Notes: generated by a model not told the origin, from the letters alone. Positions 1 to 59,609 are shown, counted from the stretch's first letter. The stretch is DNA of 64,000 nt from Escherichia coli (GCF_022846255.1 NZ_AP025682.1), one strand, 5' to 3'. Program-made: numbers and translations.

Positions 1-1228
1 CGAGCCCGAAGCCAACCTGGCACTCATTTCTGTACCGGGAGACTACGCCGCCGCCGAAGCAATTAAAGCGTTAAACCTCGGAATGAACGTGATGATGTTC
101 AGCGATAACGTCAGTATCGTGCAGGAAAAATCCATCAAAACGCTTGCCCGAGAACGTCAGCGCATCGTAATGGGACCTGACTGTGGAACCGCCATTGTTA
201 ACGGCATTCCGTTAGGCTTCGCTAATGTGGTGAAACGCGGAGCAATTGGTGTTATTGGCGCGTCAGGCACCGGGCTACAGGAAGTGACTTGCCGAATCGA
301 CCAGCTCGGAGCGGGTATTTCTCAGGCGTTGGGAACAGGCGGACATGATCTCAGTGAAGAGATTGGTGGAATATCGATGCTCTTCGCTTTAGATGCGCTG
401 GCGCAAGACGATGAAACTCGCGTGATTGTGCTTATTTCAAAACCGCCTTCACCGATCGTTGCCCGGACTATTCTGGAGCGTGCCGAGGCTTGTGGAAAAC
501 CCGTGGTGGTGAATTTCCTCGGTGCGAATCCGCATGATCTGGCACGTCCCAATATCACCGCGGCCACCACACTTGCCAGCGCCGCAAATATCGCCGTGGC
601 GTTACTGAATGATCAACCACTTCCGACTATCGAGACCGAAATTTCCTGCGACGATCTCACAATGTTACAAAACGCCTGCCAGCGCCTGCCAGCCCATCGC
701 CAGGCGATACGCGGTGTTTTCGCCGGAGGAACCTTCTGCTACGAAGCGCAACTTATCTGCCAACAAAAGGGATTCATCGCAGCCTCCAATACGCCAGTTG
801 CGGGTAATCGTGCTCTGGCAAATATCTGGCAAATCGAAGATCACACGTTGATCGATATGGGCGACGATGATTTCACCCGTGGCAAACCGCATCCAATGAT
901 CGACCCGACTCTGCGCAATCAACGTCTGCTCAACGAACTCAACGACTCACACACTGCCGTCGTGTTATTCGACCTGGTACTTGGTTATGGCGCTTCCACG
1001 ACGCCTGCCAGCGAATTACTGGACCAACTTTCACACATCGACATGAATAACGCACCGTTGCTGATTGCGCACGTTTGCGGAACGGAAGCTGATCCGCAAA
1101 TACGCAGTCAGCAGATAAGCGCACTACAAAATGCAGGGGTCATCATCGCCAGCAGCAATGCACAGGCGGCGCTATGGGCCAGCACCGTTGCACAGACTCA
1201 GTTGCAGAAAAAGGGGCTAAACGCATGA
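1..1228 (+). CDS. FdrA-like protein (CoA-binding, NDP-forming acyl-CoA synthetase-like), 5'-truncated by window edge
   Basis: ORF 83..1228 stays open in frame back to position 2; Gly-rich GxIGxSGTG motif; stop overlaps next start (ATGA at 1225-1228). Confidence 0.65.
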   Translation, partial: EPEANLALISVPGDYAAAEAIKALNLGMNVMMFSDNVSIVQEKSIKTLARERQRIVMGPDCGTAIVNGIPLGFANVVKRGAIGVIGASGTGLQEVTCRIDQLGAGISQALGTGGHDLSEEIGGISMLFALDALAQDDETRVIVLISKPPSPIVARTILERAEACGKPVVVNFLGANPHDLARPNITAATTLASAANIAVALLNDQPLPTIETEISCDDLTMLQNACQRLPAHRQAIRGVFAGGTFCYEAQLICQQKGFIAASNTPVAGNRALANIWQIEDHTLIDMGDDDFTRGKPHPMIDPTLRNQRLLNELNDSHTAVVLFDLVLGYGASTTPASELLDQLSHIDMNNAPLLIAHVCGTEADPQIRSQQISALQNAGVIIASSNAQAALWASTVAQTQLQKKGLNA

Positions 1229-2649
1229 ATACCTTATTTAATCAGCCTTTGAAGGTCGTGAACGCGGGACTACACAGTTTTGCTGACAATATTCAACATG
1301 CCGGGGGAAGCGCAATTGCACTCAACTGGCAGCCACCAGCACAAGGCGATATTGACGCTGGATTGGATCTGGCATCGTTGCTACGTCATCCCCTGGTAGA
1401 AAATGCCAACCAAATCGCCATGACACGTTATCTCGAAGCACAGCCCGTGCTGGTGGATGTCATGCTCGCTAAAGAGGCCATTCCAGCAATGGCTGAACAA
1501 AAACGTATTTTGCACTCTGGCCCGCCGATTGCCTGGGAAGAGATGTGTGGTCCGGTAAAAGGGGCGATTATTGGTGCCATGCTGTACGAAGGTTGGGCCA
1601 CCAGCCAGCAAGACGCTGAAAACCAAATAAACGCAGGCGAAATCGACCTTGCCCCTTGTCATCATTATCACGCGGTTGGCCCAATGGCAGGCATCATCAG
1701 CCCGTCGATGCCGTTATGGGTGGTAGAAAACAAAACCAACGGCCATCGTACTTTTAGCAATTTCAATGAAGGGCTGGGTAAGGTTCTCCGTTTTGGCGCC
1801 AATAACGATGAAGTTCTCAATCGTCTGGCCTGGATGCGCGATGAACTGGCGCCGGCAATGAAAGCAGCAATCGCACAACACGGCGAGCTGGAACTCAAGC
1901 CATTAATGGCGCAGGCGCTGCATATGGGGGATGAAGTTCATAACCGCAATGCTGCCGCTACCGGTTTGCTGATTAAGCGCCTGCTCCCGGCATTGCTGGC
2001 CTGCTCTCTTCCACAGGAACATATCCAGCGCGTCGTGGCATTTATCACCGGTAACGATCACTTCTTCCTCAATCTTTCGATGGCCGCCTGTAAAGCAATG
2101 ATGGATGCCGCCGCCAATGTACCGTTCAGTTCAATGGTTACGGTGATGGCGCGTAACGGGGTGAATTTTGGTATTCGGCTTTCCGGTACTGGCGATCGCT
2201 GGTTCCAGGCTCCTGCCAATGCCGTTGAAGGTCTGTTCTTCCCCGGATTTGGCGTCGACGATGCCGCTGCTGACCTGGGTGATAGCGCAATTACTGAAAC
2301 CGCAGGTGTGGGTGGCTTCGCGATGGCGTCATCTCCAGCGATCGTCAAATTTGTGGGAGGCACCCCTGCCGATGCCACCAATAACAGCCGTAGGATGCAA
2401 GCAATCACCCTCGGTGGTAACCCCGCATTTACACTTCCTGCCCTCAATTTTGCCCCCACCGCAGCAGGGATTGATGCGCGTAAAGTGACCGATCGCGGCA
2501 TTTTACCGGTCATCAATACGGGTATCGCCCACAAACAAGCGGGGGTCGGGCAAATTGGTGCCGGGATCACCACTGCGCCGATGGCCTGTTTTGTCGCCGC
2601 TGTACGTGCACTGGCGGAGATCGTCGCAAAGGAGAACCATCATGGTTAA
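1225..2649 (+). CDS. DUF1116 family protein (YlbE/YahG-like)
   Basis: ATG at 1225 preceded by AAAAAGGGG; ORF-track product resembles E. coli YahG/YlbE; translationally coupled to neighbours. Confidence 0.7.
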   Translation: MNTLFNQPLKVVNAGLHSFADNIQHAGGSAIALNWQPPAQGDIDAGLDLASLLRHPLVENANQIAMTRYLEAQPVLVDVMLAKEAIPAMAEQKRILHSGPPIAWEEMCGPVKGAIIGAMLYEGWATSQQDAENQINAGEIDLAPCHHYHAVGPMAGIISPSMPLWVVENKTNGHRTFSNFNEGLGKVLRFGANNDEVLNRLAWMRDELAPAMKAAIAQHGELELKPLMAQALHMGDEVHNRNAAATGLLIKRLLPALLACSLPQEHIQRVVAFITGNDHFFLNLSMAACKAMMDAAANVPFSSMVTVMARNGVNFGIRLSGTGDRWFQAPANAVEGLFFPGFGVDDAAADLGDSAITETAGVGGFAMASSPAIVKFVGGTPADATNNSRRMQAITLGGNPAFTLPALNFAPTAAGIDARKVTDRGILPVINTGIAHKQAGVGQIGAGITTAPMACFVAAVRALAEIVAKENHHG

Positions 2650-3598
2650 GCCACTGGCTGTCGTCGCGGTTGGCGGCAATGCGCTCATTCAGGACGAGCA
2701 ACGCAATAGTATTCCCGATCAATATGTTGCAGTGATGGAAAGCGTGCAACATATCGTTGATATGGTTGAAGCCGGATGGGACCTGGTACTAACCCACGGT
2801 AATGGCCCGCAGGTGGGCTTTATTCTGCGCCGCTCTGAACTCGCCAGTAACGAAGTTTCTCCGGTTCCACTTGATTACGCCGTGGGTGATACACAAGGTG
2901 CAATTGGCTACATGTTCCAGAAAGCGCTGCATAACGAATTGGCTCGCCGTGGCATAAACAAACCGGTAATTGCCCTGGTGACACAAACGCGAGTCAGCCC
3001 ACATGACGATGCTTTCGCCAGCCCCAGTAAACCAATTGGCGCGTTTCTCGATGAAGCAACGGCCCAACAACGCCAACAACAACTCGGCTGGACGCTGATG
3101 GAGGACGCCGGGCGTGGTTGGCGGCGTACAGTTCCCTCTCCTGCACCACTGGAAATTATTGAGCACGACACCATCGCTCACCTGGTGCGCCAGGGATATC
3201 TGGTTATTGCCTGCGGCGGCGGCGGTATTCCGGTGGTGCGAGACGGGCAACAACTGAAAGGTGTGGAAGCCGTGATCGATAAAGATCTGGCCTCCGCGCT
3301 GCTCGCCAGTCAGTTAGGCGCAGATCTGCTGGTGATCCCCACCGGTGTAGAAAAAGTAGCGATTAACTTTGGTACACCACAACAACAGTGGCTCGACGCT
3401 ATCAGCGTTGCCGAAGCGCAAACGCTGTTGCGGGAAGGTCAGTTTGGTGTCGGCAGTATGCAACCCAAAGTGGAAGCCATTGTTGATTTCATCAATGCCA
3501 GCCAGCAACAAGGCAAACAGGCCAGCGGCCTGATTACTTCACCGCAAACCATAAAAGCAGCCCTGGCGCATCAGAGCGGTACATGGATAACCCTTTAA
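2642..3598 (+). CDS. carbamate kinase (ArcC/YahI/YqeA-like paralog)
   Basis: MVKPLAVVAVGGNALI N-terminus, THGNGPQVG and CGGGGIPVV motifs typical of carbamate kinase; ATG 2642 overlaps upstream stop by 8 nt. Confidence 0.85.
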   Translation: MVKPLAVVAVGGNALIQDEQRNSIPDQYVAVMESVQHIVDMVEAGWDLVLTHGNGPQVGFILRRSELASNEVSPVPLDYAVGDTQGAIGYMFQKALHNELARRGINKPVIALVTQTRVSPHDDAFASPSKPIGAFLDEATAQQRQQQLGWTLMEDAGRGWRRTVPSPAPLEIIEHDTIAHLVRQGYLVIACGGGGIPVVRDGQQLKGVEAVIDKDLASALLASQLGADLLVIPTGVEKVAINFGTPQQQWLDAISVAEAQTLLREGQFGVGSMQPKVEAIVDFINASQQQGKQASGLITSPQTIKAALAHQSGTWITL

Positions 3599-3614
3599 TT
3601 CTCTGGAGAACACA

Positions 3615-4004
3615 ATGACTACAACGCTTTTAGCCGTTAACGGAACGCTGATGCGCGGCCTGGAACTCAACCCAAATATGCAAAAAGCGGGCGGTATTTT
3701 TGTCCGTGAAGACCGAACTGACGCCCATTACCGGTTGTGGAGTATTAATGATCGCCATCCGGGAATGATTCGCGTGAATGAAGGAGGAACACACGTCGAC
3801 GTAGAAATTTGGCAATTACCGCTGGCCAGTTTTGCCGCTCTGTTAATGAGCGAACCCGCTGGGCTGGCAATTGGCAAAATCAAACTTGCCGATGGTAGCG
3901 AAGTGCTGGGCGTACTGGCAGAAAACTGGCTGACCGAAGGCCAACGGGAAATTACAGAACTGGGTAGCTGGCGCAAATACACCGGGCATTTTCATACTGT
4001 GTAA
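3615..4004 (+). CDS. small hypothetical protein, possibly gamma-glutamyl-cyclotransferase-like fold
   Basis: 129-aa ORF with GGAGA Shine-Dalgarno 8 nt upstream; weak resemblance to AIG2/GGCT-like N-terminus; in operon context. Confidence 0.45.
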   Translation: MTTTLLAVNGTLMRGLELNPNMQKAGGIFVREDRTDAHYRLWSINDRHPGMIRVNEGGTHVDVEIWQLPLASFAALLMSEPAGLAIGKIKLADGSEVLGVLAENWLTEGQREITELGSWRKYTGHFHTV

Positions 4005-4029
4005 CGCGCATTTATAAAGGGAACATACT

Positions 4030-5253
4030 ATGCGTAAAAAAGAAGAGAATCTGAATACGGCATCAGGATTGCGTATTGCCATGATTTTGCTGGGTATTGC
4101 CGTCACACCTGTGCTGTTGTCATCCTCAAGCCTCGGCAATCAACTTTCCAGCGGCAGTTTAATTAGCGTCGTATTGTTAGGCGGCGTCATTCTGACCTTA
4201 CTTTCAGCCATCACCATTAGCGTGGGAGAAAAAGCCCGCCTGCCAACGTATGGCATTGTGAAATATTCGTTTGGCGAAAAAGGGGCCATCGCCATTAACA
4301 TTTTGATGGCGATAAGTCTGTTCGGCTGGATTGCCGTTACCGCCAATATGTTTGGTCATTCGGTACATGACTTACTGGCTCAACATGGACTGGAAGTTCC
4401 ACTGGCACTGTTAGTGGCGGCTGGCTGTGTCATTTTTGTCGCCTCTACGGCATTTGGCTTTGCCGTTCTGGGAAAAATTGCCCAGGTTGCCGTGCCGGTT
4501 ATCGCGCTGGTGCTGTGTTACATCCTCTATGTGGCAACCCATACCGAAGTGGCAGTACCAGCGGCGATTGTGGAGATGAATACAGGTGTCGCCGTTTCCA
4601 CCGTTGTTGGCACCATTATTGTGCTGGTTGCCACACTGCCTGATTTCGGTAGTTTTGTGCATAACCGCAAACATGCGCTGATTGCCGCAGGCGTGACGTT
4701 TCTGGTTGCCTACCCTCTGCTCTACTGGGCGGGTGCAACGCCGAGCGCCATTAGTGGTCAGGGATCTTTACTGGGTGCGATGGCGGTATTCGGTGCGGTT
4801 CTGCCTGCGGCGCTGTTGTTGATTTTCGCCTGCGTCACCGGTAACGCGGGCAATATGTTCCAGGGCACGCTGGTGGTTTCCACACTGCTTACCCGCTTTC
4901 CCAAATGGCAGATTACCGTGGCGCTGGGTATCCTTTCCGCCATCGTAGGCAGTATGGATATTATGGCGTGGTTTATTCCGTTTCTGCTGTTCCTGGGTAT
5001 CGCCACGCCACCCGTTGCCGGAATTTATATCGCTGACTTTTTCCTTTATCGCCGTAATGGCTATCAAGAGTCAGTGTTAGCCCAGGAGTCACAGATTAAA
5101 GTGCTGACATTCGCAGCATGGATCATAGGCGCAGCGGTTGGCTTTATGACCGTAAAAGGCTTATTCACCCTGACGACGATCCCTTCGGTAGACTCGATTC
5201 TGGTGGCATGTATCGCGTATGCGATTCTCAGTCGGGCAAGTCAACACCGCTAA
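4030..5253 (+). CDS. NCS1-family permease (cytosine/purine/allantoin permease-like)
   Basis: 407-aa polytopic membrane protein with CodB-like sequence; AAGGGA Shine-Dalgarno. Confidence 0.75.
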   Translation: MRKKEENLNTASGLRIAMILLGIAVTPVLLSSSSLGNQLSSGSLISVVLLGGVILTLLSAITISVGEKARLPTYGIVKYSFGEKGAIAINILMAISLFGWIAVTANMFGHSVHDLLAQHGLEVPLALLVAAGCVIFVASTAFGFAVLGKIAQVAVPVIALVLCYILYVATHTEVAVPAAIVEMNTGVAVSTVVGTIIVLVATLPDFGSFVHNRKHALIAAGVTFLVAYPLLYWAGATPSAISGQGSLLGAMAVFGAVLPAALLLIFACVTGNAGNMFQGTLVVSTLLTRFPKWQITVALGILSAIVGSMDIMAWFIPFLLFLGIATPPVAGIYIADFFLYRRNGYQESVLAQESQIKVLTFAAWIIGAAVGFMTVKGLFTLTTIPSVDSILVACIAYAILSRASQHR

Positions 5254-5330
5254 TTCCTGGGTATACTCAGGCAATGATTACGGCTGAATCTGGAGAGATT
5301 CAGCCACTTTACCACTGACCAGGGAGCCTT

Positions 5331-6227
5331 ATGTTCATCTCAGACGAAACGCTTCGTGTTATTCATCTGGTCGCCAGACACCAGAGCATTACCACCGCAG
5401 CCGAGCAGTTAAATAAAGTCCCTTCCGCCATCAGTTACACCATCAAGAAAGCGGAAGAGAGCCTGGGCGTTGAACTGTTCATTCGTAAGGGACGCTATAT
5501 TGAATTATCGCCAGCGGGAAGTTACTTCATCGAACATAGCAAAACTATTCTTGGCGACCTGGAAGCATTAAAGCGCAACACAGTGCTGATTCACGATGGT
5601 ATTGAGCGTGAACTGACAATAGCGGTAAACAATATTATTCCTGGTGATTTGCTGGTGGCATTTATTCGAGATTTTGAACGGCAATTCACATCAACAACAC
5701 TGACGGTAGATCTTGAGGTATACAACGGCTGCTGGGATGCGCTGTACAGTAAGCGTGCTGATCTGGTCTACGGTGCTCCTCATGCAGTACCAAGCAGTGA
5801 AGGCATCATTAGCGAACCGGTCGGACAAATGGAATGGGATTTTGTCGTCAGCCCACTCCACCCACTGGCAGCGAAGCGGCATCCATTAGAAAACAGTGAA
5901 TTGCGTCATTATCCAGCGGTTTGTATCCGCGATACCTCCGTTAACTTCCCCCCGATGCAAGCCTGGTTGTTGGAAGGACAAAAACCCATTTTTGTTCCTG
6001 ACTTCGCTACGGCAATCGCCTTAATAGAACAAAACGTCGGTATTGGTTATATTCCACATCATCTGGCATTGCCGTTATTGAACAGCGGTAAATTGCTTAA
6101 AAAGCCAATGCGCGAACATAAACACGCCACCAAGTTATTTCTTGCCGCTCGTTCCGATGGTATGGGCAAAGCCTGTCAGTGGTGCATAGAATATTTAAGA
6201 AATCCGCAATTAATTTTCTGTTCCTGA
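5331..6227 (+). CDS. LysR-family transcriptional regulator
   Basis: N-terminal helix-turn-helix (ITTAAEQLNKVPSAISYTIKKAEESLGVELF) and LysR substrate-binding domain length. Confidence 0.85.
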   Translation: MFISDETLRVIHLVARHQSITTAAEQLNKVPSAISYTIKKAEESLGVELFIRKGRYIELSPAGSYFIEHSKTILGDLEALKRNTVLIHDGIERELTIAVNNIIPGDLLVAFIRDFERQFTSTTLTVDLEVYNGCWDALYSKRADLVYGAPHAVPSSEGIISEPVGQMEWDFVVSPLHPLAAKRHPLENSELRHYPAVCIRDTSVNFPPMQAWLLEGQKPIFVPDFATAIALIEQNVGIGYIPHHLALPLLNSGKLLKKPMREHKHATKLFLAARSDGMGKACQWCIEYLRNPQLIFCS

Positions 6228-6256
6228 AGATCCACATCATACCTGGCATACATAGC

Positions 6257-6286
6257 AAAATGGCTTCCGGTGTTGGAAGCCATTAT
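6257..6286. terminator. bidirectional hairpin between LysR gene and metE 3' ends
   Basis: 10-bp perfect inverted repeat AATGGCTTCC / GGAAGCCATT with 6-nt loop, A-run on one side and T-rich on the other. Confidence 0.45.
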
Positions 6287-6320
6287 TGTGCTGCAATTTA
6301 CAATGACTCGTTAATACTCA

Positions 6321-8582
6321 TCATCCCCGACGCAAATTCTGCGCCGCCTGCACCATGTTCGCCAGTGCCGCGCGGGTTTCTGGCCAGCCGCGCGTTTTCA
6401 GGCCACAGTCCGGGTTGACCCACAGACGCTCTGCCGGAATGCGTTTTGCCGCTTTCTTCAGCAAGGCTTCAATCCATTCCACGCTCGGTACGTTTGGCGA
6501 GTGAATGTCATAGACGCCAGGACCGATTTCATTTGGATAATCAAACTCTTCAAACGACTCCAGCAACTCCATGTCGGAACGCGAGGTTTCGATGGTGATG
6601 ACGTCTGCGTCCAGCGCCGCAATCGAATCCATGATGTCGTTGAACTCGCAGTAACACATGTGAGTGTGGATTTGTGTGTCATCTTTCGCCACGGCGGCGT
6701 TGATACGGAAAGCCTCCACGCCCCACTGGAGATAGGCATCCCAGTCGCTGCGACGCAGTGGTAAACCTTCGCGCAATGCCGGTTCGTCAATCTGAATGAT
6801 GCCAATTCCAGCGGCTTCCAGGTCCGCCACTTCATCACGCAGCGCCAGCGCAATTTGTTTGGCGATGGTTTCACGGCTGACATCTTCACGCGGGAACGAC
6901 CAGCAGAGAATAGTCACCGGGCCGGTCAACATCCCTTTCACCGGTTTATCAGTCAGGGATTGCGCATATTTTGCCCACTCCACGGTAATCGGTGCCGGGC
7001 GGCTAACGTCACCAATAACAATCGGTGGCTTCACGCAGCGGGAACCGTAGCTCTGTACCCAACCGTTTTGCGTAAAGACAAAGCCATCCAGATGCTCGCC
7101 AAAGTATTCCACCATGTCATTACGCTCGGCCTCGCCATGTACCAGCACATCCAGTCCCAAACGTTCCTGCTCAACAATGGCCTGCTTGATATGTTCCGCA
7201 ATGCCCGTGCGGTAGTTATTGGCGTCGAGATTACCCTTTTTGAAATCCAGACGCAGGGTACGAATCTCCGTGGTTTGCGGGAAGGAACCAATCGTGGTGG
7301 TCGGCCACGCGGGCAGTTTAAAACGCGCACGCTGGGCTTCAGCACGCACTTCATAGACATTCGCACGCTGACTGTCCTGAGCGGTGATCGCCGCCAGACG
7401 CTTTTCTACTGCCGGATTATGTACACGAGTAGAGTGACGACGCGCCTGAATCGGAGCGCTCCACTCTGCCAGAGCTGCCGTATCACCACTGTTCAGCGTA
7501 TCGCGCAGCAATGCCAGTTCATGACATTTTTGCAGGGCGAAGGCAAACCAGCTTTTCACTTCTGCATCAAGACGCGTTTCCACGCTCAGGTCGATGGGGC
7601 TGTGCAGCAACGAGCAGGAAGATGCCACCCACAAATCGCGTTTGCCGACAATGTCCTTAATTTGCGCATATTTCTCGGTAAGATCGGCGCGCCAGACGTT
7701 ACGACCATTGATAAGACCCGCAGACAGCAGCCAGTCAGAAGGCAGACGCTTGTGCAGTTCAGCAACGTCATCTTTACCATGTACGAGATCGACATGCAGA
7801 CCCTGAACAGGCAGCGCAGTAATCGTGTCGAGGTTTGGCGTTACGCCTTCAAAATAGGTAGTCAGCAGCAGTTTCACCTGCCCCTGCAGAGCATCGTAAG
7901 CGGGTTTGTACGCATCCAGCCACGCCTGCGGCAGTTCCAGAACCAGCGCGGGTTCATCAATCTGTACCCACTCGATGCCGCGTTTTGCCAGTTCTGCCAG
8001 CACTTGCTGATAAACCGGCAGAATGTCGTTCAGCAGGCTCAGGCGATCAAACTGTTCACCTTTCACTTTACCCAGCCACAGGTAGGTAACCGGCCCCAGC
8101 AGCACAGGTTTCACCTTGTGGCCCAGCGCCAGCGCCTCGTCCACTTCCTCCAGCAGCTGCGTCCAGGTCAGTTTGAACTGTTGGCCTTTAACGAACTCCG
8201 GCACCATGTAGTGATAGTTGGTGTTAAACCATTTGGTCATTTCCGCTGCCGCCGCAGGTTCGCCAGTCGGTGCACGTCCACGACCAATACGGAACAGGGT
8301 GTCGATATCTACCGAACCATCTTTGTTCTGGTGACGCGCCGGAACGTTACCCAGCAGCAGGCTGGTGGTCAGGACATGATCGTACCAGGCAAAATCACCC
8401 ACCGGCAGCAGGTCGATACCTGCTTGCTTTTGTTGATCCCAGTGACGAGCACGCAGTTCACGCCCTACCGCCAGCAGTTCTTCACGCGTGGAGTTCCCCG
8501 CCCAATAACTCTCTTGCGCTTTTTTCAGCTCGCGACGCAGGCCAACGCGAGGGAAACCGAGGGTGTGATTAAGAATTGTCAT
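6321..8582 (-). CDS. metE: cobalamin-independent methionine synthase
   Basis: 753-aa product matching E. coli MetE ([29 protein letters not shown]...). Confidence 0.97.
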
Positions 8583-13235: not shown

Positions 13236-14096
13236 ATGACGGAAGCAACGACACCACATGACGCAATCTTTAAGGCTTTTTTATCCCGACCAGAAACGGC
13301 CCGTGACTTTATTGAAATTCATCTGCCGCCTTCTTTAGTTAAACTCTGCAATCTTGATACGCTCCATCTCGAGTCCAGCAGTTTTGTAGAGGAAAACCTA
13401 CGCCAGTATTACAACGACGTACTTTATTCAGTAGAGACGACGAAAGGGTGCGGATATATCTATGTGTTGATTGAGCATCAAAGTTCACCTGATGAAAATA
13501 TGGCGTTCCGTATGCTTCGCTATGCTATTGCCACCATGCAGCGGCATCTTGAAGCGGGACATGATTATCTGCCTCTGGTGATCCCCATTCTTTTTTACCA
13601 GGGAAAGCGTAGCCCATATCCATGGTCAACAAACTGGCTCGATGGTTTTCCGGATCCGGACATTGCACGCGATCTCTATTTCCATGCTTTTCCGCTGGTT
13701 GATATTACGCTAATTCCTGATGACGAAATCATGCAACACCGCAGCATGGCCGCCTTTACGCTGGTACAGAAGCATATCCGTCAACGGGATATGACAACGC
13801 TGTTAGATAAGTTATCCCGCTTAATGATTCTGGGGCAGATGAGCGGACAGCAAATACGCATGTTGATAAACTACATGGCGCTGGTAGGTGAAGCACAGGA
13901 TGTACGAACATTAGTACATGGTCTGGCACAACGAGTGCCTCAACAAGGAGAGGAACTGATGACTTTAGCGGAAGAACTTCGGCGCGATGCCCTTCTCAAT
14001 GTCGCAAAAGCAATGCTACAGCGTGGCTTTGATTTGCAGTTGATTATGGAAATGACCGGGCTTTCTCAGGAAGACCTTTATCAATTGCAATCCTGA
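13236..14096 (+). CDS. Rpn-family recombination-promoting nuclease (YhgA-like, PD-(D/E)XK, transposase_31 family)
   Basis: 286-aa product closely resembling E. coli RpnA/YhgA N-terminus (TPHDAIFK..., LHLESSSF, VLIEHQS, MAFRMLRY, LPLVIPILFYQG, PLVDITLIPDDEIMQHR); lower GC than flanks. Confidence 0.85.
   Translation: MTEATTPHDAIFKAFLSRPETARDFIEIHLPPSLVKLCNLDTLHLESSSFVEENLRQYYNDVLYSVETTKGCGYIYVLIEHQSSPDENMAFRMLRYAIATMQRHLEAGHDYLPLVIPILFYQGKRSPYPWSTNWLDGFPDPDIARDLYFHAFPLVDITLIPDDEIMQHRSMAAFTLVQKHIRQRDMTTLLDKLSRLMILGQMSGQQIRMLINYMALVGEAQDVRTLVHGLAQRVPQQGEELMTLAEELRRDALLNVAKAMLQRGFDLQLIMEMTGLSQEDLYQLQS
13959..14096 (+). CDS. candidate nested in-frame small ORF (45 aa, RpnS-like) inside the Rpn-family gene
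   Basis: consensus AAGGAG at 13945-13950, 8-nt spacer, in-frame ATG at 13959; would express the C-terminal 45 residues separately. Confidence 0.4.
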   Translation: MTLAEELRRDALLNVAKAMLQRGFDLQLIMEMTGLSQEDLYQLQS

Positions 14097-22350: not shown

Positions 22351-23253
22351 ATGAAAAAAACGCTCGCAACATTATTTTTATTAACCTGTCTGGGGTCATC
22401 ATCCGCTTATGCGGATAACGCTTTGATTTTACAAACGGATTTTAGCCTGAAAGATGGTGCCGTCTCGGCGATGAAAGGGGTCGCTTTCGGCGTTGACCAT
22501 AATCTTAAAATATTTGATTTAACACACGAAATTCCACCGTATAACATCTGGGAAGGCGCTTACCGCCTGTATCAGACTGCCAATTACTGGCCGCAAGGTT
22601 CGGTGTTTGTTAGCGTGGTCGATCCTGGTGTTGGTACAGAGCGTAAATCGGTAGTGCTGAAAACCAAAAATGGTCAGTACTTCGTTTCACCAGATAACGG
22701 TACGCTCACGTTGGTGGCGGAATCGCTGGGTATTGAGAGCGTCCGGCAAATCGATGAAAAAACCAACCGTCTGAAAGGTTCCGAAAAGTCATATACCTTC
22801 CACGGTCGTGACGTGTATGCCTACACCGGTGCACGTCTGGCTTCCGGGGCGATCACGTTCGAGCAGGTGGGGCCAGAGCTTCCTGCAAAAGTTGTCGAAC
22901 TTTCTTATCAGAAAGCCAAAGCAACAAAAGGTGAAGTGAAGGGCAATATCCCGATTCTCGATATTCAGTACGGCAACGTCTGGAGCAATATCAGCGACGA
23001 GTTGCTGAATCAGGCAGGAATCAAACTCAACGACACGTTGTGTGTGACCATTTCCGAAGGTTCCCAGCAAAAATACGCAGGGAAAATGCCGTATGTCGCA
23101 AGCTTCGGCGATGTGCCGGAAGGCCAGCCGATGGTGTATCTGAACAGCTTATTGAATGTTTCCGTGGCGCTGAATATGGATAATTTCGCGCAGAAACATC
23201 AGGTTGCGTCTGGTGCTGACTGGAATATTGATGTGAAGAAGTGCGCTAAGTAA
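22351..23253 (+). CDS. DUF62 / SAM hydroxide adenosyltransferase-like protein with Sec signal peptide
   Basis: MKKTLATLFLLTCLGSSSAYA signal peptide with AxA cleavage site; ILQTDFS...MKGV and VVDPGVGTERK motifs characteristic of the SAM hydrolase/fluorinase-like family. Confidence 0.75.
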   Translation: MKKTLATLFLLTCLGSSSAYADNALILQTDFSLKDGAVSAMKGVAFGVDHNLKIFDLTHEIPPYNIWEGAYRLYQTANYWPQGSVFVSVVDPGVGTERKSVVLKTKNGQYFVSPDNGTLTLVAESLGIESVRQIDEKTNRLKGSEKSYTFHGRDVYAYTGARLASGAITFEQVGPELPAKVVELSYQKAKATKGEVKGNIPILDIQYGNVWSNISDELLNQAGIKLNDTLCVTISEGSQQKYAGKMPYVASFGDVPEGQPMVYLNSLLNVSVALNMDNFAQKHQVASGADWNIDVKKCAK

Positions 23254-28931: not shown

Positions 28932-29119
28932 TATGGATTGCCTGTAAAGTTCATCGCTTTCTGCTTTCTATCATCGCAGGAGAAGGCGTAAAAGCAAGCG
29001 TTTAGCGACTCTTTATGAAGTCTGAAAAGTGAGGAAATGCTGCGAGTATAACGCTTACTCGTGGCGATTTATGTTTTGCTGGTAGTTTCGTGATCGGCAC
29101 CTCGCGCCAGGATGGCTTT

Positions 29120-31147
29120 ATGCACTATCGCAATGTGGTTTGTTTGTTGGCTTGTTCGTTGTTTTTATCGTCGGCATGGGGATGTCGGCTTTCCGCGCCT
29201 GAACATAATATTTACCAGAAACAGGGAAAAGGCGTGGTGTACCTGCGCCCTTATCAGAAAACAAATCTTTCTCTACCTGACGTGAAATACAAGAGATTGC
29301 GTCGTTTACCCAATTTATTAATAGACCCAACAACACTAGACGAATGGGATAAAGAACCTCCTCTGACCGATCTGACAACCGACTACCTCTATGAAGGCGC
29401 ACAAGCCTGGTATCCTCATTATTCCTGGCATAGCGATGGTCGCTATATCCTCTACGCAGGTGAAGTTGTGCAAAACCCTCCCGGCACTCCTCCCGTCGAT
29501 GTCGCCTCGTTCAAGGCATGGGGTGATTTTGCCGCAGATAAACACAGTCTCTATTTCGAAGGCAAGCGCACCGATGACAATGGCGGGGGAAATAGCTTAG
29601 ATATCAAAACACTGCATCAGGTGAAATTCCGTTTCCCCTGGAAACCTGACGTTCTGGGGCTGATATTACGTGACGCTAATTTCTTATATGTTGATGGACA
29701 TCGCCTCGCTGACCCCGAGAGTTTTCGCGTGCTGGCGCAAAAATCCTGGGATCAGCGAGGAAAGTTTTCCACCACGTTTAACCCCTGCGTTGCCGTACCA
29801 TTTGGCCCCTGGGATACATTAGCCCGTACACACACGGAAATGATGATCAACGGCGAACAGCTTGATGCCGACCCGGAGACATTTACTGTCGTACGCTGGA
29901 TGCCCGGTTCGTTATTAACCTGGCGAGATAAAAGCGGCCTGCACCGGAAGGTGCTGAATCAGGGAAATCTGGACAAAGATAGGGCAAATAGCTGCGCGGC
30001 GTTCAATTTGCAGGAACACTCTGTTTCATGGCGCAAAGGGCCTGAATGCCAGCAAGAAGTCCTACCCGGCCTCGATCCAGAACAATTTCACCCTCTTAGT
30101 AATACCGTCGCGCAGTATCAGGACAAACTGTACACCATCAAAAAAACAGAATTTGGCGAAAACAGGCTGGATATCGTCACGCTGGATAATCCTGCTTTGG
30201 TGATTAATAAACGCTTTAACGCGGGAAGAACTCACGGCTATTTACTGACCAAATTACAAGTTCGTGGTGAAGAAGAAGATGGTCTCCAGGTATTCGAGTC
30301 TTCCGGGCCGCTTATCCTGATGGATTATCGTGTTCCTGACGAGCGTGAGGCTCACCTTAGCGATAGCTCCCATTACAAGAAATGGTATGCACACGACGAT
30401 CGTTATGTTTACGCATTCGATGGCTCACAGCTTTGGCGCTACCCAACACCCAATACCAGGGCCGTGCGGGTGAACTGGAAAACCGGACATTCAGGATATG
30501 GCTATTGGGCAGACTACCGTAGTGGAGAGTTAGACGGCAGACTTCTTGAGGATGGTGCGTTTATTCCAACGGGAATCCCCTATAACTCATCCGTTAACAT
30601 TGCTCAATATTCTGCTGGCGAGAGCGCTTTTCTCGTCGGCGAAACCGATGTTAGCTGGCGTAAGCTTCGCTCTACAGACCAGCAATGGAGTCAATGGGGG
30701 AAACTCCGCGATATTGACCCAAAAGCATTTCACCCCATCACCGATCGTATCGCGCAGTACAAAAATACTCTGTACATTGCGAAATTGTCTCCTTTTGGTG
30801 AAGACATCCTGGAAACCCTAACGCTCGACTCTTCTGCACCTTTCCTGAACCAACGCATTAACGCAGGGAAAGACCATGGCTACTTTATGCGCTCTTCCCG
30901 ATTACGCGACGATATTCAAATTTTTGCCATTGATGGACCATTGAAGACCACCGAACGCTTCGCTTATGACAATCGCTATGTTTATACCTGGATCGGTAGC
31001 CAACTTTATCGAACCGCGTCGCCCTGTCCGGCAAAGACACGTAATCTGGATCAGAACATGTTTTCATCCAATGATGACATCATCATCCTGAAGACGGATG
31101 AAGAGTGCCGCAAAGCACCAGACATTGAGCAAACTTTGAAGCCCTGA
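29120..31147 (+). CDS. DKNYY-repeat family secreted protein
   Basis: ORF 29090..31147 begins at GTG; ATG at 29120 has an AGGA Shine-Dalgarno 7 nt upstream; signal-peptide-like N-terminus; repeated DK.(S/T)LY / D.RYVY motifs and a duplicated internal module. Confidence 0.7.
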   Translation: MHYRNVVCLLACSLFLSSAWGCRLSAPEHNIYQKQGKGVVYLRPYQKTNLSLPDVKYKRLRRLPNLLIDPTTLDEWDKEPPLTDLTTDYLYEGAQAWYPHYSWHSDGRYILYAGEVVQNPPGTPPVDVASFKAWGDFAADKHSLYFEGKRTDDNGGGNSLDIKTLHQVKFRFPWKPDVLGLILRDANFLYVDGHRLADPESFRVLAQKSWDQRGKFSTTFNPCVAVPFGPWDTLARTHTEMMINGEQLDADPETFTVVRWMPGSLLTWRDKSGLHRKVLNQGNLDKDRANSCAAFNLQEHSVSWRKGPECQQEVLPGLDPEQFHPLSNTVAQYQDKLYTIKKTEFGENRLDIVTLDNPALVINKRFNAGRTHGYLLTKLQVRGEEEDGLQVFESSGPLILMDYRVPDEREAHLSDSSHYKKWYAHDDRYVYAFDGSQLWRYPTPNTRAVRVNWKTGHSGYGYWADYRSGELDGRLLEDGAFIPTGIPYNSSVNIAQYSAGESAFLVGETDVSWRKLRSTDQQWSQWGKLRDIDPKAFHPITDRIAQYKNTLYIAKLSPFGEDILETLTLDSSAPFLNQRINAGKDHGYFMRSSRLRDDIQIFAIDGPLKTTERFAYDNRYVYTWIGSQLYRTASPCPAKTRNLDQNMFSSNDDIIILKTDEECRKAPDIEQTLKP

Positions 31148-38654: not shown

Positions 38655-38670
38655 GCCTTTCTGATATATA

Positions 38671-38876
38671 AAAAAACGCCTGCTCTTATTACGGAGCAGG
38701 CGTTAAAACAGGTCTGTATGACAACAAGTGGGTGCTTCACTCAACGTTGTGTCCATGGTGTCTGATGAGGCATAAGCGACATCTGTCAGTGGACGATAAG
38801 CACCGTAAACGGCTCTGCGTCATTCCGGAGTTTATGAGGCACTAAGGCGAACATAAGAGATGGAATGAGCATCTAC
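38671..38876 (-). ncRNA. glmZ: GlmZ small regulatory RNA (SraJ/RyiA)
   Basis: minus-strand sequence GTAGATGCTCATTCCATCTCTTATG ... AACGCCTGCTCCGTAATAAGAGCAGGCGTTTTTT matches GlmZ as I recall it; terminator hairpin plus U-run at the 3' end; lies in the hemY-aslA intergenic region. Confidence 0.8.
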
Positions 38877-42428: not shown

Positions 42429-42505
42429 TGGTCGGCGAGAGAGGATTCGAACCTCCGACCCACTGGTCCCAAACCAGTTGCGCTACCAAGCTGCGCTACT
42501 CGCCG
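42429..42505 (-). tRNA. proM: tRNA-Pro (anticodon UGG)
   Basis: reverse complement folds as a 77-nt tRNA with ...TTTGGGA... anticodon loop and encoded CCA. Confidence 0.9.
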
Positions 42506-42547
42506 AAATACTGCTTTTTGAATTTTTAGTTCAATTCTTTAAAGTCG

Positions 42548-42634
42548 TGGTGCGAGGGGGGGGACTTGAACCCCCACGTCCGTAAGGACACTAACACCTG
42601 AAGCTAGCGCGTCTACCAATTCCGCCACCTTCGC
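42548..42634 (-). tRNA. leuT: tRNA-Leu (anticodon CAG)
   Basis: 87-nt type II tRNA with long variable arm, anticodon loop CTTCAGGT, encoded CCA. Confidence 0.9.
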
Positions 42635-42654
42635 ATTGTCACAACTTCTAATAA

Positions 42655-42731
42655 TGGGGTGGCTAATGGGATTCGAACCCACGACAACTGGAATCACAAT
42701 CCAGGGCTCTACCAACTGAGCTATAGCCACC
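42655..42731 (-). tRNA. hisR: tRNA-His (anticodon GUG)
   Basis: 77 nt including the extra 5' G(-1); anticodon loop ATTGTGA; encoded CCA. Confidence 0.9.
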
Positions 42732-42788
42732 ACTACAAATCTTGTTACGCGGTATTACTACCACCGCAGCTCAAGCGCCGGGACTAAA

Positions 42789-42865
<77 letters not shown>

Positions 42866-59149: not shown

Positions 59150-59479
59150 TTACGCCAGGTTAGCGTCGAGGAACTCTTTCAACTGACCTTTAGACAGTGC
59201 GCCCACTTTGGTTGCCGCCACTTCACCGTTTTTGAACAGCAGCAGAGTCGGGATACCACGGATGCCATATTTCGGCGCAGTGCCAGGGTTTTGATCGATG
59301 TTCAGTTTTGCAACGGTCAGTTTGCCCTGATATTCGTCAGCGATTTCATCCAGAATCGGGGCGATCATTTTGCACGGACCGCACCACTCTGCCCAGAAAT
59401 CGACGAGGATCGCCCCGTCCGCTTTGAGTACATCCGTGTCAAAACTGTCGTCAGTCAGGTGAATAATTTTATCGCTCAT
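59150..59479 (-). CDS. trxA: thioredoxin 1
   Basis: [41 protein letters not shown]... 109 aa with WCGPC active site. Confidence 0.97.
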
Positions 59480-59609
59480 ATATAACTCCACAGGAATAAG
59501 CCTGGCGTGTTGGTTTCGTTGTTGGTGTAACATTAACCAACTAAAGGTTGACTTTATTTCACCGGATACGCTTTCGTAAAGCAATAGTAAGCTGATATTC
59601 TACCACACT

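Follow-up and report, generated by a model that had tools for sequence, protein, structure and literature searches.

The stretch of DNA described here is a segment of 64,000 nucleotides from Escherichia coli (GCF_022846255.1, NZ_AP025682.1), referred to below as the window. Its left end carries genes for an FdrA-like (AllF-like) protein, a DUF1116 (AllG-like) protein, a carbamate kinase, a 129-aa protein, an NCS1-family permease and a LysR-type regulator. They form the downstream part of a catabolic cassette of eight genes that is horizontally mobile and sits between ysgA and metE, with the order trtA-like hydrolase, allH-like, allF-like, allG-like, carbamate kinase, solo AH_C (the 129-aa protein), NCS1 permease and LysR. 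The locus is already known, as the tkt1 island or GR 29 found in extraintestinal pathogenic E. coli (ExPEC), but its function was not. With somewhat better than even confidence, we propose that the cassette breaks down urea oligomers of the triuret/biuret type via carbamoyl phosphate to NH3 and ATP.

Gene content and genomic setting

An open reading frame (ORF) listing and direct reading of the sequence place six tightly packed ORFs on the + strand between positions 2 and 6227 (Table 1). They have the common direction and the coordinates given by the first-pass annotation, which had been made from the sequence alone. The junctions are also exactly as that annotation had read them. The start of the allG-like gene overlaps the stop of the allF-like gene in an ATGA at 1225-1228, and the allG-like and carbamate kinase genes share 8 nt (2642-2649). 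The next two genes are set off by 16 nt (3599-3614) and 25 nt (4005-4029), with GGAG/AGGA-type Shine-Dalgarno sequences before each following gene, and 77 nt precede the LysR gene.

Table 1. Cassette genes and neighbouring features at the left end of the window (positions counted from its first letter).
Feature	Position	Strand	Remarks
allF-like gene, 3' part	2..1228	+	Residues 112-519 of 519; 5' end beyond the left window edge
allG-like gene (formerly DUF1116), 474 aa	1225..2649	+	Pfam AllG PF06545, E 8.6e-99
Carbamate kinase gene (arcC-type), 318 aa	2642..3598	+	TIGR00746 equivalog
Stand-alone AH_C gene, 129 aa	3615..4004	+	Pfam AH_C PF21986, E 1.8e-41
NCS1-family permease gene, 407 aa	4030..5253	+	CodB-like, not a CodB orthologue; candidate substrate importer
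LysR-type regulator gene (PunR/AllS-like), 298 aa	5331..6227	+	Probable pathway-specific activator
Right-hand island junction	6214..6320		LysR gene abuts metE (short island form)
metE	6321-8582	-	Converges on the LysR gene

Hidden Markov model (HMM) searches upheld the earlier FdrA-like, DUF1116 and carbamate kinase assignments. The AllF-like protein contains CoA_binding (4e-9) and Ligase_CoA (2e-39) domains of Pfam, to which its orthologues add HMA_AllF_N, and it matches the NCBIfam FdrA subfamily model with E 4e-116. The carbamate kinase exceeds the cut-offs of both TIGR00746 (366.2 bits, cut-off 358.25) and PRK12352 (377.6 bits, cut-off 266).

The genes missing at the left edge were found on the chromosome of strain LR-28, which is 99.8% identical. 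The allF-like ORF of the window is in frame with a full 519-aa protein of that strain, with a single mismatch in 381 aa. Upstream of it, and directly after ysgA, lie two further genes encoding a 222-aa cysteine hydrolase and then a DUF2877/AllH-like protein (Pfam AllH PF11392, E 6.5e-27). The operon had been predicted to continue past the left edge with a DUF2877-like gene, and this gene lies at the predicted place.

The G+C content of the cassette (49-55%) bears no foreign mark. Consensus scans for promoters and terminators over the whole island returned no more sites than in shuffled sequence, and no sigma-54 promoter was seen in the island by eye. When the upstream regions of seven enterobacterial copies were aligned, conserved blocks appeared outside the window, with two palindromic elements (CAGCA/TGCTG-like and GCAA/TTGC-like) that could be LysR boxes.

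In K-12, ysgA and metE are only 39 bp apart and the block is absent, in line with the first-pass annotation, which had not placed it in the K-12 layout. It is present in 1555 of 5426 complete E. coli genomes (29%). In 362 genomes the island has a short form, with metE next to the LysR gene; the window strain has this form and carries no tkt1, ptsG-like or hxlB-like module. Most carriers (B2 ExPEC, e.g. NRG857c and Nissle 1917) have an hxlB-ptsG-tkt1-rpiR module between the LysR gene and metE, and in this long form similarity to the window breaks at 6214, where the ~8-kb tkt1 module follows.

The same DNA at ysgA-metE was described in APEC O1, a strain of avian pathogenic E. coli (APEC), as the 'tkt1 genomic island' (Li et al. 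2012; PMC3349570). There, APECO1_2632-2639 correspond to the eight genes discussed here and are listed as hypothetical, yahE/F/G-like, carbamate kinase, permease and isochorismatase hydrolase. A genome paper on strain BEN2908 from 2026 named the island GR 29 and speculated on a Rut-like pyrimidine degradation (PMC12928451). A second small islet lies near the cassette and outside the window, between rmuC and udp (locus L001, 2474-7913). It encodes an IclR regulator, homologues of 2-dehydro-3-deoxygalactonokinase and aldolase, and a tripartite tricarboxylate transporter, and is the 'islet' mentioned in the tkt1-island paper.

The cassette is also found on plasmids. An allele of ~94.6% identity occurs on 82 conjugative plasmids in PLSDB, of which 78 come from Escherichia, with chickens as the source of many, and 4 from Klebsiella, and the ColV virulence plasmid pAPEC-O2-211A-ColV is among the carriers. 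On ColV/IncF plasmids of APEC (L009 7036-15214 and 22193-24207; L094 6001-14179), the cassette is flanked by insertion sequence remnants and lies beside an iron ATP-binding cassette transporter. One cassette-bearing plasmid also has a yahB-yahD-yahE-like cluster.

Protein families and the substrate clue

Compared with solved structures, the cysteine hydrolase encoded by the first gene of the operon scores best against TrtA of Herbaspirillum (6XIX; E 9e-80, 270 bits), followed by BiuH (~1e-69, 237 bits) and RutB (4e-29, 105 bits). It is 59% identical to TrtA, a triuret hydrolase that has been crystallised and assayed. On the NCBIfam equivalog models it stays below the cut-offs both for BiuH (NF050097; 279.8 bits, cut-off 370) and for RutB (111.9, cut-off 378). 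Six positions discriminate TrtA from BiuH (F35, N41, A134, E160, Y187 and I205), while the triad and Q202 are shared (Tassoulas et al.; PMC7948467). The E. coli protein is TrtA-type at all six and BiuH-type at none, and alignment gives the same result for orthologues from Paraburkholderia, Dyella and Psychrobacter. The signature extends to 80 of 80 species orthologues, exactly in 73 and with only A134S in the other 7, the one substitution reported to be harmless. The Asp-Lys-Cys triad, E72, K132 and Q202 are likewise kept in the island protein and in 80/80 orthologues.

TrtA yields 1-carboxybiuret from triuret, and its activity on biuret is ~10^4-fold lower (PMC7948467). Triuret is a product of uric acid oxidation, notably by peroxynitrite, and is found in human urine under oxidative stress. 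The first-pass annotation had proposed uptake of an N-heterocyclic or ureido compound, broken down to carbamoyl phosphate and then to ATP. Because the operon begins with a TrtA-type hydrolase, the substrate is narrowed to oligo-ureides of the triuret/biuret type. The ureido half of that proposal and its kinase logic thus survive as the best reading, and the N-heterocycle does not.

In 2024, FdrA, YlbE and YlbF were shown to form the oxamic transcarbamylase (OXTCase) AllFGH, which converts oxalurate and inorganic phosphate (Pi) to oxamate and carbamoyl phosphate, with AllK as the catabolic carbamate kinase (PMC11326118). This gives experimental standing to the tie between FdrA, DUF1116 and DUF2877 proteins and oxamate carbamoyltransferase that the annotation had noted. 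The island has adjacent genes of the AllF, AllG (PF06545) and AllH (PF11392) families with an adjoining carbamate kinase gene, and its AllF-like product is predicted to be the large subunit of an AllFGH-type (OXTCase-like) carbamoyltransferase. The island genes are not orthologous to b0518-b0520, and no all/allantoin genes flank them.

K-12 does have a paralogous yah cluster with its own carbamate kinase, as had been stated. Identities to the K-12 proteins are 40% (AllF) and 42% (YahF) for the AllF-like protein, 49% (AllG) and 46% (YahG) for the AllG-like protein, 33% (AllH, partial alignment) and 26% (YahE) for the AllH-like protein, and 38% (AllK) and 48% (YahI) for the kinase. Being about equally far from AllFGHK and YahEFGI (26-49%), the island proteins make up a third paralogous set. 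Since 5407 of 5426 E. coli genomes already have the core allFGHK operon, this set is an additional paralogue and not a replacement.

The island shares the gene order H-F-G-K with the yah cluster. In K-12 AllF, a stretch of about 40 residues makes up the C-terminal tail (L007 12200-12345), whereas the island AllG (window 1225-1350) and yah-type AllG have it at the N-terminus, a shift of the domain boundary across the AllF/AllG junction that would suit a tightly bound AllF-AllG complex. The idea that AllF-like proteins share a phosphohistidine was dropped: the variable position of GTGG(H/R)D, a His in the island protein, is occupied by Arg in both K-12 AllF and YahF and is therefore no catalytic residue of the family as a whole.

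The 129-aa protein corresponds by sequence to the C-terminal domain of allophanate hydrolase (AH_C), here encoded as a protein by itself. It is identical to a structural-genomics entry, PDB 5C5Z, and matches the C-domain of the allophanate hydrolase of G. bethesdensis with E 9e-12. The Pfam match covers its full length and there is no amidase-signature N-domain, so the protein is AH_C only and not an allophanate hydrolase. Solo AH_C proteins are highly conserved, with identities of 66-98% across the best 120 database clusters and of 58-98% in most of the cassette loci that were analysed. Relative to seven allophanate-hydrolase C-domains, GAH is changed to GTL and YxLYAL to YRxWSIND, and a PPxPG insert is lost. 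The same GTL and YRxWSIND motifs, with no insert, are shared by all solo and carbamate-kinase-fused members, which form a distinct subfamily. In the yeast enzyme, the His of GAH is reportedly catalytic (Fan et al. 2013).

Gene fusions link AH_C to two other enzymes. It is fused to carbamate kinase (~455 aa) in Mycobacterium/Mycolicibacterium and in a metagenomic contig of actinobacterial type (L076 13623-14987; L073, L083 and L085; L097 4968-6344). In streptophyte and other green algae (Klebsormidium, Chlorokybus; P0136, P0132, P0202 and P0281), solo-type AH_C is fused N- or C-terminally to BiuH, which would imply a conserved BiuH/AH_C partnership in eukaryotes. The partners of AH_C (allophanate amidase, BiuH and carbamate kinase) all handle N-carboxylated compounds, namely allophanate, N-carboxycarbamate and carbamate. 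On this ground AH_C may bind or decarboxylate such an intermediate, or act as a scaffold for the enzymes.

The permease had been called a cytosine-permease-like NCS1 transporter. Membership of the NCS1 superfamily holds, and its orthologues match Pfam Transp_cyt_pur, but with 145.7 bits on the cytosine permease equivalog NF008241 (cut-off 326) it does not reach CodB. The transporter is exchanged between taxa while the enzymes stay, the alternatives to NCS1 being a ~510-aa membrane protein and a member of the urea transporter (UT) family. The former is polytopic, has no match in Pfam or NCBIfam and occurs in 23 loci (L074 10731-12272; among L010-L089), including both canonical TrtA+BiuH loci, which makes it a candidate for a seemingly undescribed family of triuret transporters. 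The UT gene (PF03253) follows the kinase::AH_C fusion in L097 and L085, where there is neither AllH nor an NCS1 permease.

The regulator proved to be of the LysR type, as annotated. It is PunR/AllS-like and stays below both NCBIfam cut-offs (PunR 286.7 bits, cut-off 345; AllS 214.3 bits, cut-off 372), and it is 34% identical to YahB.

Conservation of the cassette across species

A scan for the hydrolase with one genome per species returned 319 relatives, and the best 80 loci (67-99% identity) were analysed by tblastn within 10 kb of the hydrolase gene. AllF and AllG were found together in 69 of these 80 loci, AH_C in 65 and carbamate kinase in 63; all four occurred in 59. The NCS1 permease was present in 49/80 loci, and 49/80 had the LysR regulator at a conserved position. 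The comparison of gene neighbourhoods that the first-pass annotation had called for thus revealed the same set and order in dozens of species from several phyla, far beyond chance. Three distant orthologues of the 129-aa protein lie in the same seven-gene cassette, with the Pfam families Isochorismatase, AllH, AllF, AllG, AA_kinase, AH_C and Transp_cyt_pur. The set is also kept in Mycobacterium, Chloroflexi, Alphaproteobacteria and a Desulfotomaculum metagenome-assembled genome (MAG), and in Pseudovibrio (L059) the order is scrambled. That the set persists across phyla and in scrambled order speaks for a functional link between the genes and against common descent of a single operon as the explanation.

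No copy of BiuH was found in the 69 AllFG-linked loci. Only two loci (L075 and L084) contain a second member of the hydrolase family; it has the exact BiuH signature, and these loci have no AllFG. Next to the TrtA-type gene, BiuH and AllFG(H) with carbamate kinase are therefore alternatives, and the association of TrtA with biuH and atzF known from characterised operons is not the pattern seen here. A full-length allophanate hydrolase (822 bits) replaces the solo AH_C, again with no BiuH, in three alphaproteobacterial MAG loci (L074, L080 and L089). Two of them, L074 and L080, have AllH, AllF, AllG and the kinase, and the contig of L089 ends within AllF. The combination of TrtA, AllF-type genes and a full allophanate hydrolase without BiuH fits a transcarbamylase that would turn carboxybiuret into allophanate.

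AllH/DUF2877 was not detectable within 10 kb in some cassettes (L019 10001-16397, L044, L045, L049, L058 and L065), in hosts such as Serratia microhaemolytica, several Caballeronia and Aeromonas cavernicola. All three subunits are required for the OXTCase of E. coli. In Avibacterium gallinarum, a respiratory pathogen of chickens, one contig (L025 2738-13623) carries the TrtA-linked AllF/AllG/AH_C genes and a more distant AllF/AllG pair, so both paralogue types co-reside outside E. coli too.

Proposed pathway and competing explanations

The substrates in the following scheme are those that we infer. The permease would import triuret or a close oligo-ureide such as biuret. The TrtA-type hydrolase, to judge from its family and specificity residues, would then remove one terminal amide and convert triuret to NH3 and 1-carboxybiuret. 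The AllF/G/H-type enzyme would phosphorolyse the N-carbamoyl bond of carboxybiuret to give carbamoyl phosphate and allophanate, a step modelled on the reaction of its paralogue OXTCase with oxalurate, of which carboxybiuret is a close, one-atom-longer analogue, and it may then phosphorolyse allophanate likewise. The carbamate kinase, whose family is clear, would convert carbamoyl phosphate and ADP to ATP and carbamate, which decays to NH3 and CO2; this direction is assumed because AllK runs so in the allantoin pathway. The least certain step is that of AH_C, which might bind or decarboxylate allophanate, carboxybiuret or carbamate, or scaffold the complex. The LysR protein would switch the operon on when it senses the substrate or an intermediate.

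Overall, BiuH and the allophanate amidase of the hydrolytic triuret pathway would be replaced by a phosphorolytic, ATP-yielding and urease-free branch. This is apparently an undescribed variant of known pathways. In the literature that could be searched, no paper was found that connects carboxybiuret or allophanate with carbamoyl phosphate. A nitrifier genome study of 2025, which reported allFGHK and codB beside trtA/biuH, took these genes for two distinct pathways, one for oxalurate and one for triuret (PMC12625717).

Two published results bear on the scheme. AllFGH has been proven to phosphorolyse an N-acylurea (PMC11326118), and E. coli Nissle 1917 grows on biuret as a nitrogen source in Biolog PM3, while K-12 MG1655 does not (PMC7924626). 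Nissle 1917 has the cassette in full, and its hydrolase is identical to the LR-28 protein.

Several points weigh against the proposal. Commercial biuret contains ~1 mol% triuret (PMC7948467), which clouds the growth of Nissle on biuret, and Nissle and K-12 make up a two-strain comparison in which the strains differ in many genes. Carboxybiuret is unstable, with a half-life of ~20 min, and decarboxylates spontaneously (PMC7948467). The tkt1-island study reported no nitrogen-source phenotype, though only a tkt1 mutant was tested (PMC3349570). At 59% identity to TrtA, the substrate of the hydrolase could differ despite the conserved signature. Solo AH_C has Leu where all seven aligned allophanate-hydrolase C-domains have His, so that its chemistry may differ, and AllH is missing from some cassettes, unlike in the three-gene E. 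coli OXTCase. No AllFGH-type enzyme is known to accept carboxybiuret, allophanate or biuret.

More tentative, and in our view rather doubtful, is a fuller version in which a 'ureide phosphorylase' would strip carbamoyl groups singly (carboxybiuret to allophanate to carbamate) and AH_C would handle the N-carboxy intermediates. Each triuret could then give at most 2 ATP and 4 NH3 with no urease, and the cassette would be a nutrient trait linked to inflammation and urate. Such a trait, if real, would explain the enrichment of the cassette in B2 ExPEC and adherent-invasive E. coli (AIEC), its occurrence on APEC ColV plasmids and in Avibacterium gallinarum, and the fitness defect of a kinase mutant in the mouse gut. 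The last point refers to the carbamate kinase NRG857_19070, an in vivo gut fitness gene in the mouse, alongside argBCGH, in the Crohn's-associated AIEC strain NRG857c (PMC8016931). This gene is a candidate for the island kinase NRG857_RS19505 (RefSeq) by gene-order arithmetic only (19070/5 = 3814 versus metE b3829, with a narH calibration). The string NRG857_19070 was not found in the supplements of PMC8016931.

The best-placed alternative, which we nevertheless regard as unlikely, is that AH_C decarboxylates carboxybiuret or allophanate and that the AllFGH-like enzyme splits biuret into carbamoyl phosphate and excreted urea, with a yield of 1 ATP and half the nitrogen. It would allow two inputs, carboxybiuret made by the hydrolase or biuret as the true growth substrate. 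The spontaneous decarboxylation of carboxybiuret (PMC7948467) and the growth of Nissle on 'biuret' (PMC7924626) agree with it, as do the fusions of AH_C to BiuH or carbamate kinase, both with N-carboxy products, and the UT gene (PF03253), which is translationally coupled to the kinase::AH_C fusion in mycobacterial-type cassettes with no NCS1 permease. However, the hydrolase has the signature of TrtA, the enzyme that is ~10^4-fold weaker on biuret, and not that of BiuH. Urea would also be a dead end for urease-negative E. coli, and the clusters with a full allophanate hydrolase and neither BiuH nor urease nearby imply allophanate as the product, not urea.

Less probable still is a second oxalurate-type pathway, with the AllFGH-like enzyme as an OXTCase isozyme and a hydrolase that deamidates another N-acylurea amide (such as an amide of oxaluric acid or a compound derived from parabanate) or removes oxamate. 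The sole characterised member of the family acts on oxalurate (PMC11326118), the regulator is AllS-like, and the authors of the nitrifier study read allFGHK beside trtA/biuH in this way (PMC12625717). Yet the core allFGHK genes are already present in 99.6% of E. coli genomes, and the island proteins, linked to no allantoin genes, are only 33-49% identical to the core set and equally far from YahEFG. This explanation also fails to account for the pairing, across phyla, with a hydrolase of TrtA signature and an allophanate-hydrolase domain, or for the exclusion of BiuH.

A Rut-related degradation of pyrimidines (cytosine/uracil), the reading given to GR 29 in the BEN2908 paper, would combine a CodB-like importer with a RutB-like, carbamate-releasing amidohydrolase. 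In its favour, the hydrolase weakly resembles RutB (32% identity) and the permease CodB (26.5%) (PMC12928451). HMM scores and gene content led us to reject it as highly improbable: the hydrolase lies much nearer TrtA and BiuH (270 and 237 bits) than RutB (105) and misses the RutB equivalog (111.9 versus 378), the permease falls far below the CodB cut-off, and no RutA-type monooxygenase, deaminase or dihydropyrimidinase belongs to the cassette at any locus examined. Other taxa also swap the transporter for unrelated families while the enzymes stay. Scarcely credible is an anabolic role, suggested by the AIEC transposon screen, in which the reversible carbamate kinase would feed carbamoyl phosphate to arginine and pyrimidine synthesis and so account for NRG857_19070 as an in vivo fitness gene alongside argBCGH (PMC8016931), since the kinase is translationally coupled within a transporter-hydrolase-transcarbamylase operon, E. 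coli has CarAB for the supply of carbamoyl phosphate, and AllK and ArcC in such contexts run catabolically (PMC9843812).

The proposed triuret/biuret cassette can be set beside several known systems. With allFGHK of the anaerobic allantoin pathway of E. coli (Kim & Kim 2022, 2024) it shares AllF-, AllG/DUF1116- and AllH/DUF2877-type proteins, a carbamate kinase, an AllS-like LysR regulator and the logic by which an N-acylurea and Pi would give carbamoyl phosphate and then ATP. It differs in its order (H-F-G-K versus F-G-H-K), in the shifted AllF/AllG boundary, in its low identity (33-49%), in having a TrtA-type hydrolase, AH_C and a permease in place of allDCE, in the dispensability of AllH in some lineages and in its predicted substrate, carboxybiuret/allophanate and not oxalurate.

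The TrtA-(TrtB)-BiuH-AtzF pathway of Herbaspirillum/Rhizobium (Tassoulas et al. 2021), with TrtB as a carboxybiuret decarboxylase, resembles the cassette in its TrtA-type first enzyme with all specificity residues, in a homologue of the allophanate-hydrolase C-domain and, in other taxa, in the ~510-aa membrane protein found in both kinds of cluster. In contrast, the cassette has neither BiuH nor the allophanate amidase domain; a transcarbamylase and a carbamate kinase stand in their place, by which ATP would be conserved and neither urease nor amidase would be needed. Its hosts also differ: enteric and pathogenic bacteria are among them, where the hydrolytic pathway has plant-associated ones. 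The yahEFG-yahI(-yahJ) cluster of K-12 has the same order of DUF2877, FdrA-like, DUF1116 and carbamate kinase genes and a related LysR protein, YahB (34%), but where the island has the TrtA-like hydrolase, AH_C and permease, it contains the ankyrin protein YahD and the amidohydrolase YahJ. Identities are 26-48%. The arginine deiminase pathway (ArcABC) also couples a catabolic transcarbamylase to carbamate kinase and draws substrate-level ATP from a carbamoyl group; its transcarbamylase has an unrelated fold, that of ornithine transcarbamylase (OTCase), and its substrate is citrulline.

If the proposed pathway is correct, it would assign a function to a block that marks key extraintestinal E. 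coli lineages and has stood as 'hypothetical' in the tkt1 island since 2012. It would extend the AllFGH transcarbamylase family beyond oxalurate, provide an energy-conserving alternative to the hydrolytic triuret/biuret pathway and hint at what allophanate hydrolase uses its enigmatic C-terminal domain for. Triuret would be a new candidate among the inflammation-derived nutrients (nitrate, tetrathionate and oxidised sugars) that favour Enterobacteriaceae. The pathway may also explain the presence of allFGHK beside trtA/biuH in comammox bacteria and ammonia-oxidising archaea, as one pathway and not two.

Other features of the window lie outside the cassette. A gene of the Rpn family of recombination-promoting nucleases/putative transposases lies between rhtB and rhtC (13236-14096), where K-12 has no gene. 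Between yigE and uvrD, a gene of the S-adenosyl-L-methionine (SAM) hydrolase/SAM-dependent halogenase family (22351-23253) weakly matches the models for (R)-S-adenosyl-L-methionine hydrolase and fluorinase. The dapF-lptM/cyaY interval holds an ORF of 685 aa (29090-31147) that is annotated as hypothetical in a related genome and has no match in Pfam, NCBIfam or PADLOC. Rfam features comprise the small RNA GlmZ (38670-38876), the thermometer in the 5' untranslated region of trxA (59450-59549) and a cluster of four tRNA genes (42432-42865).

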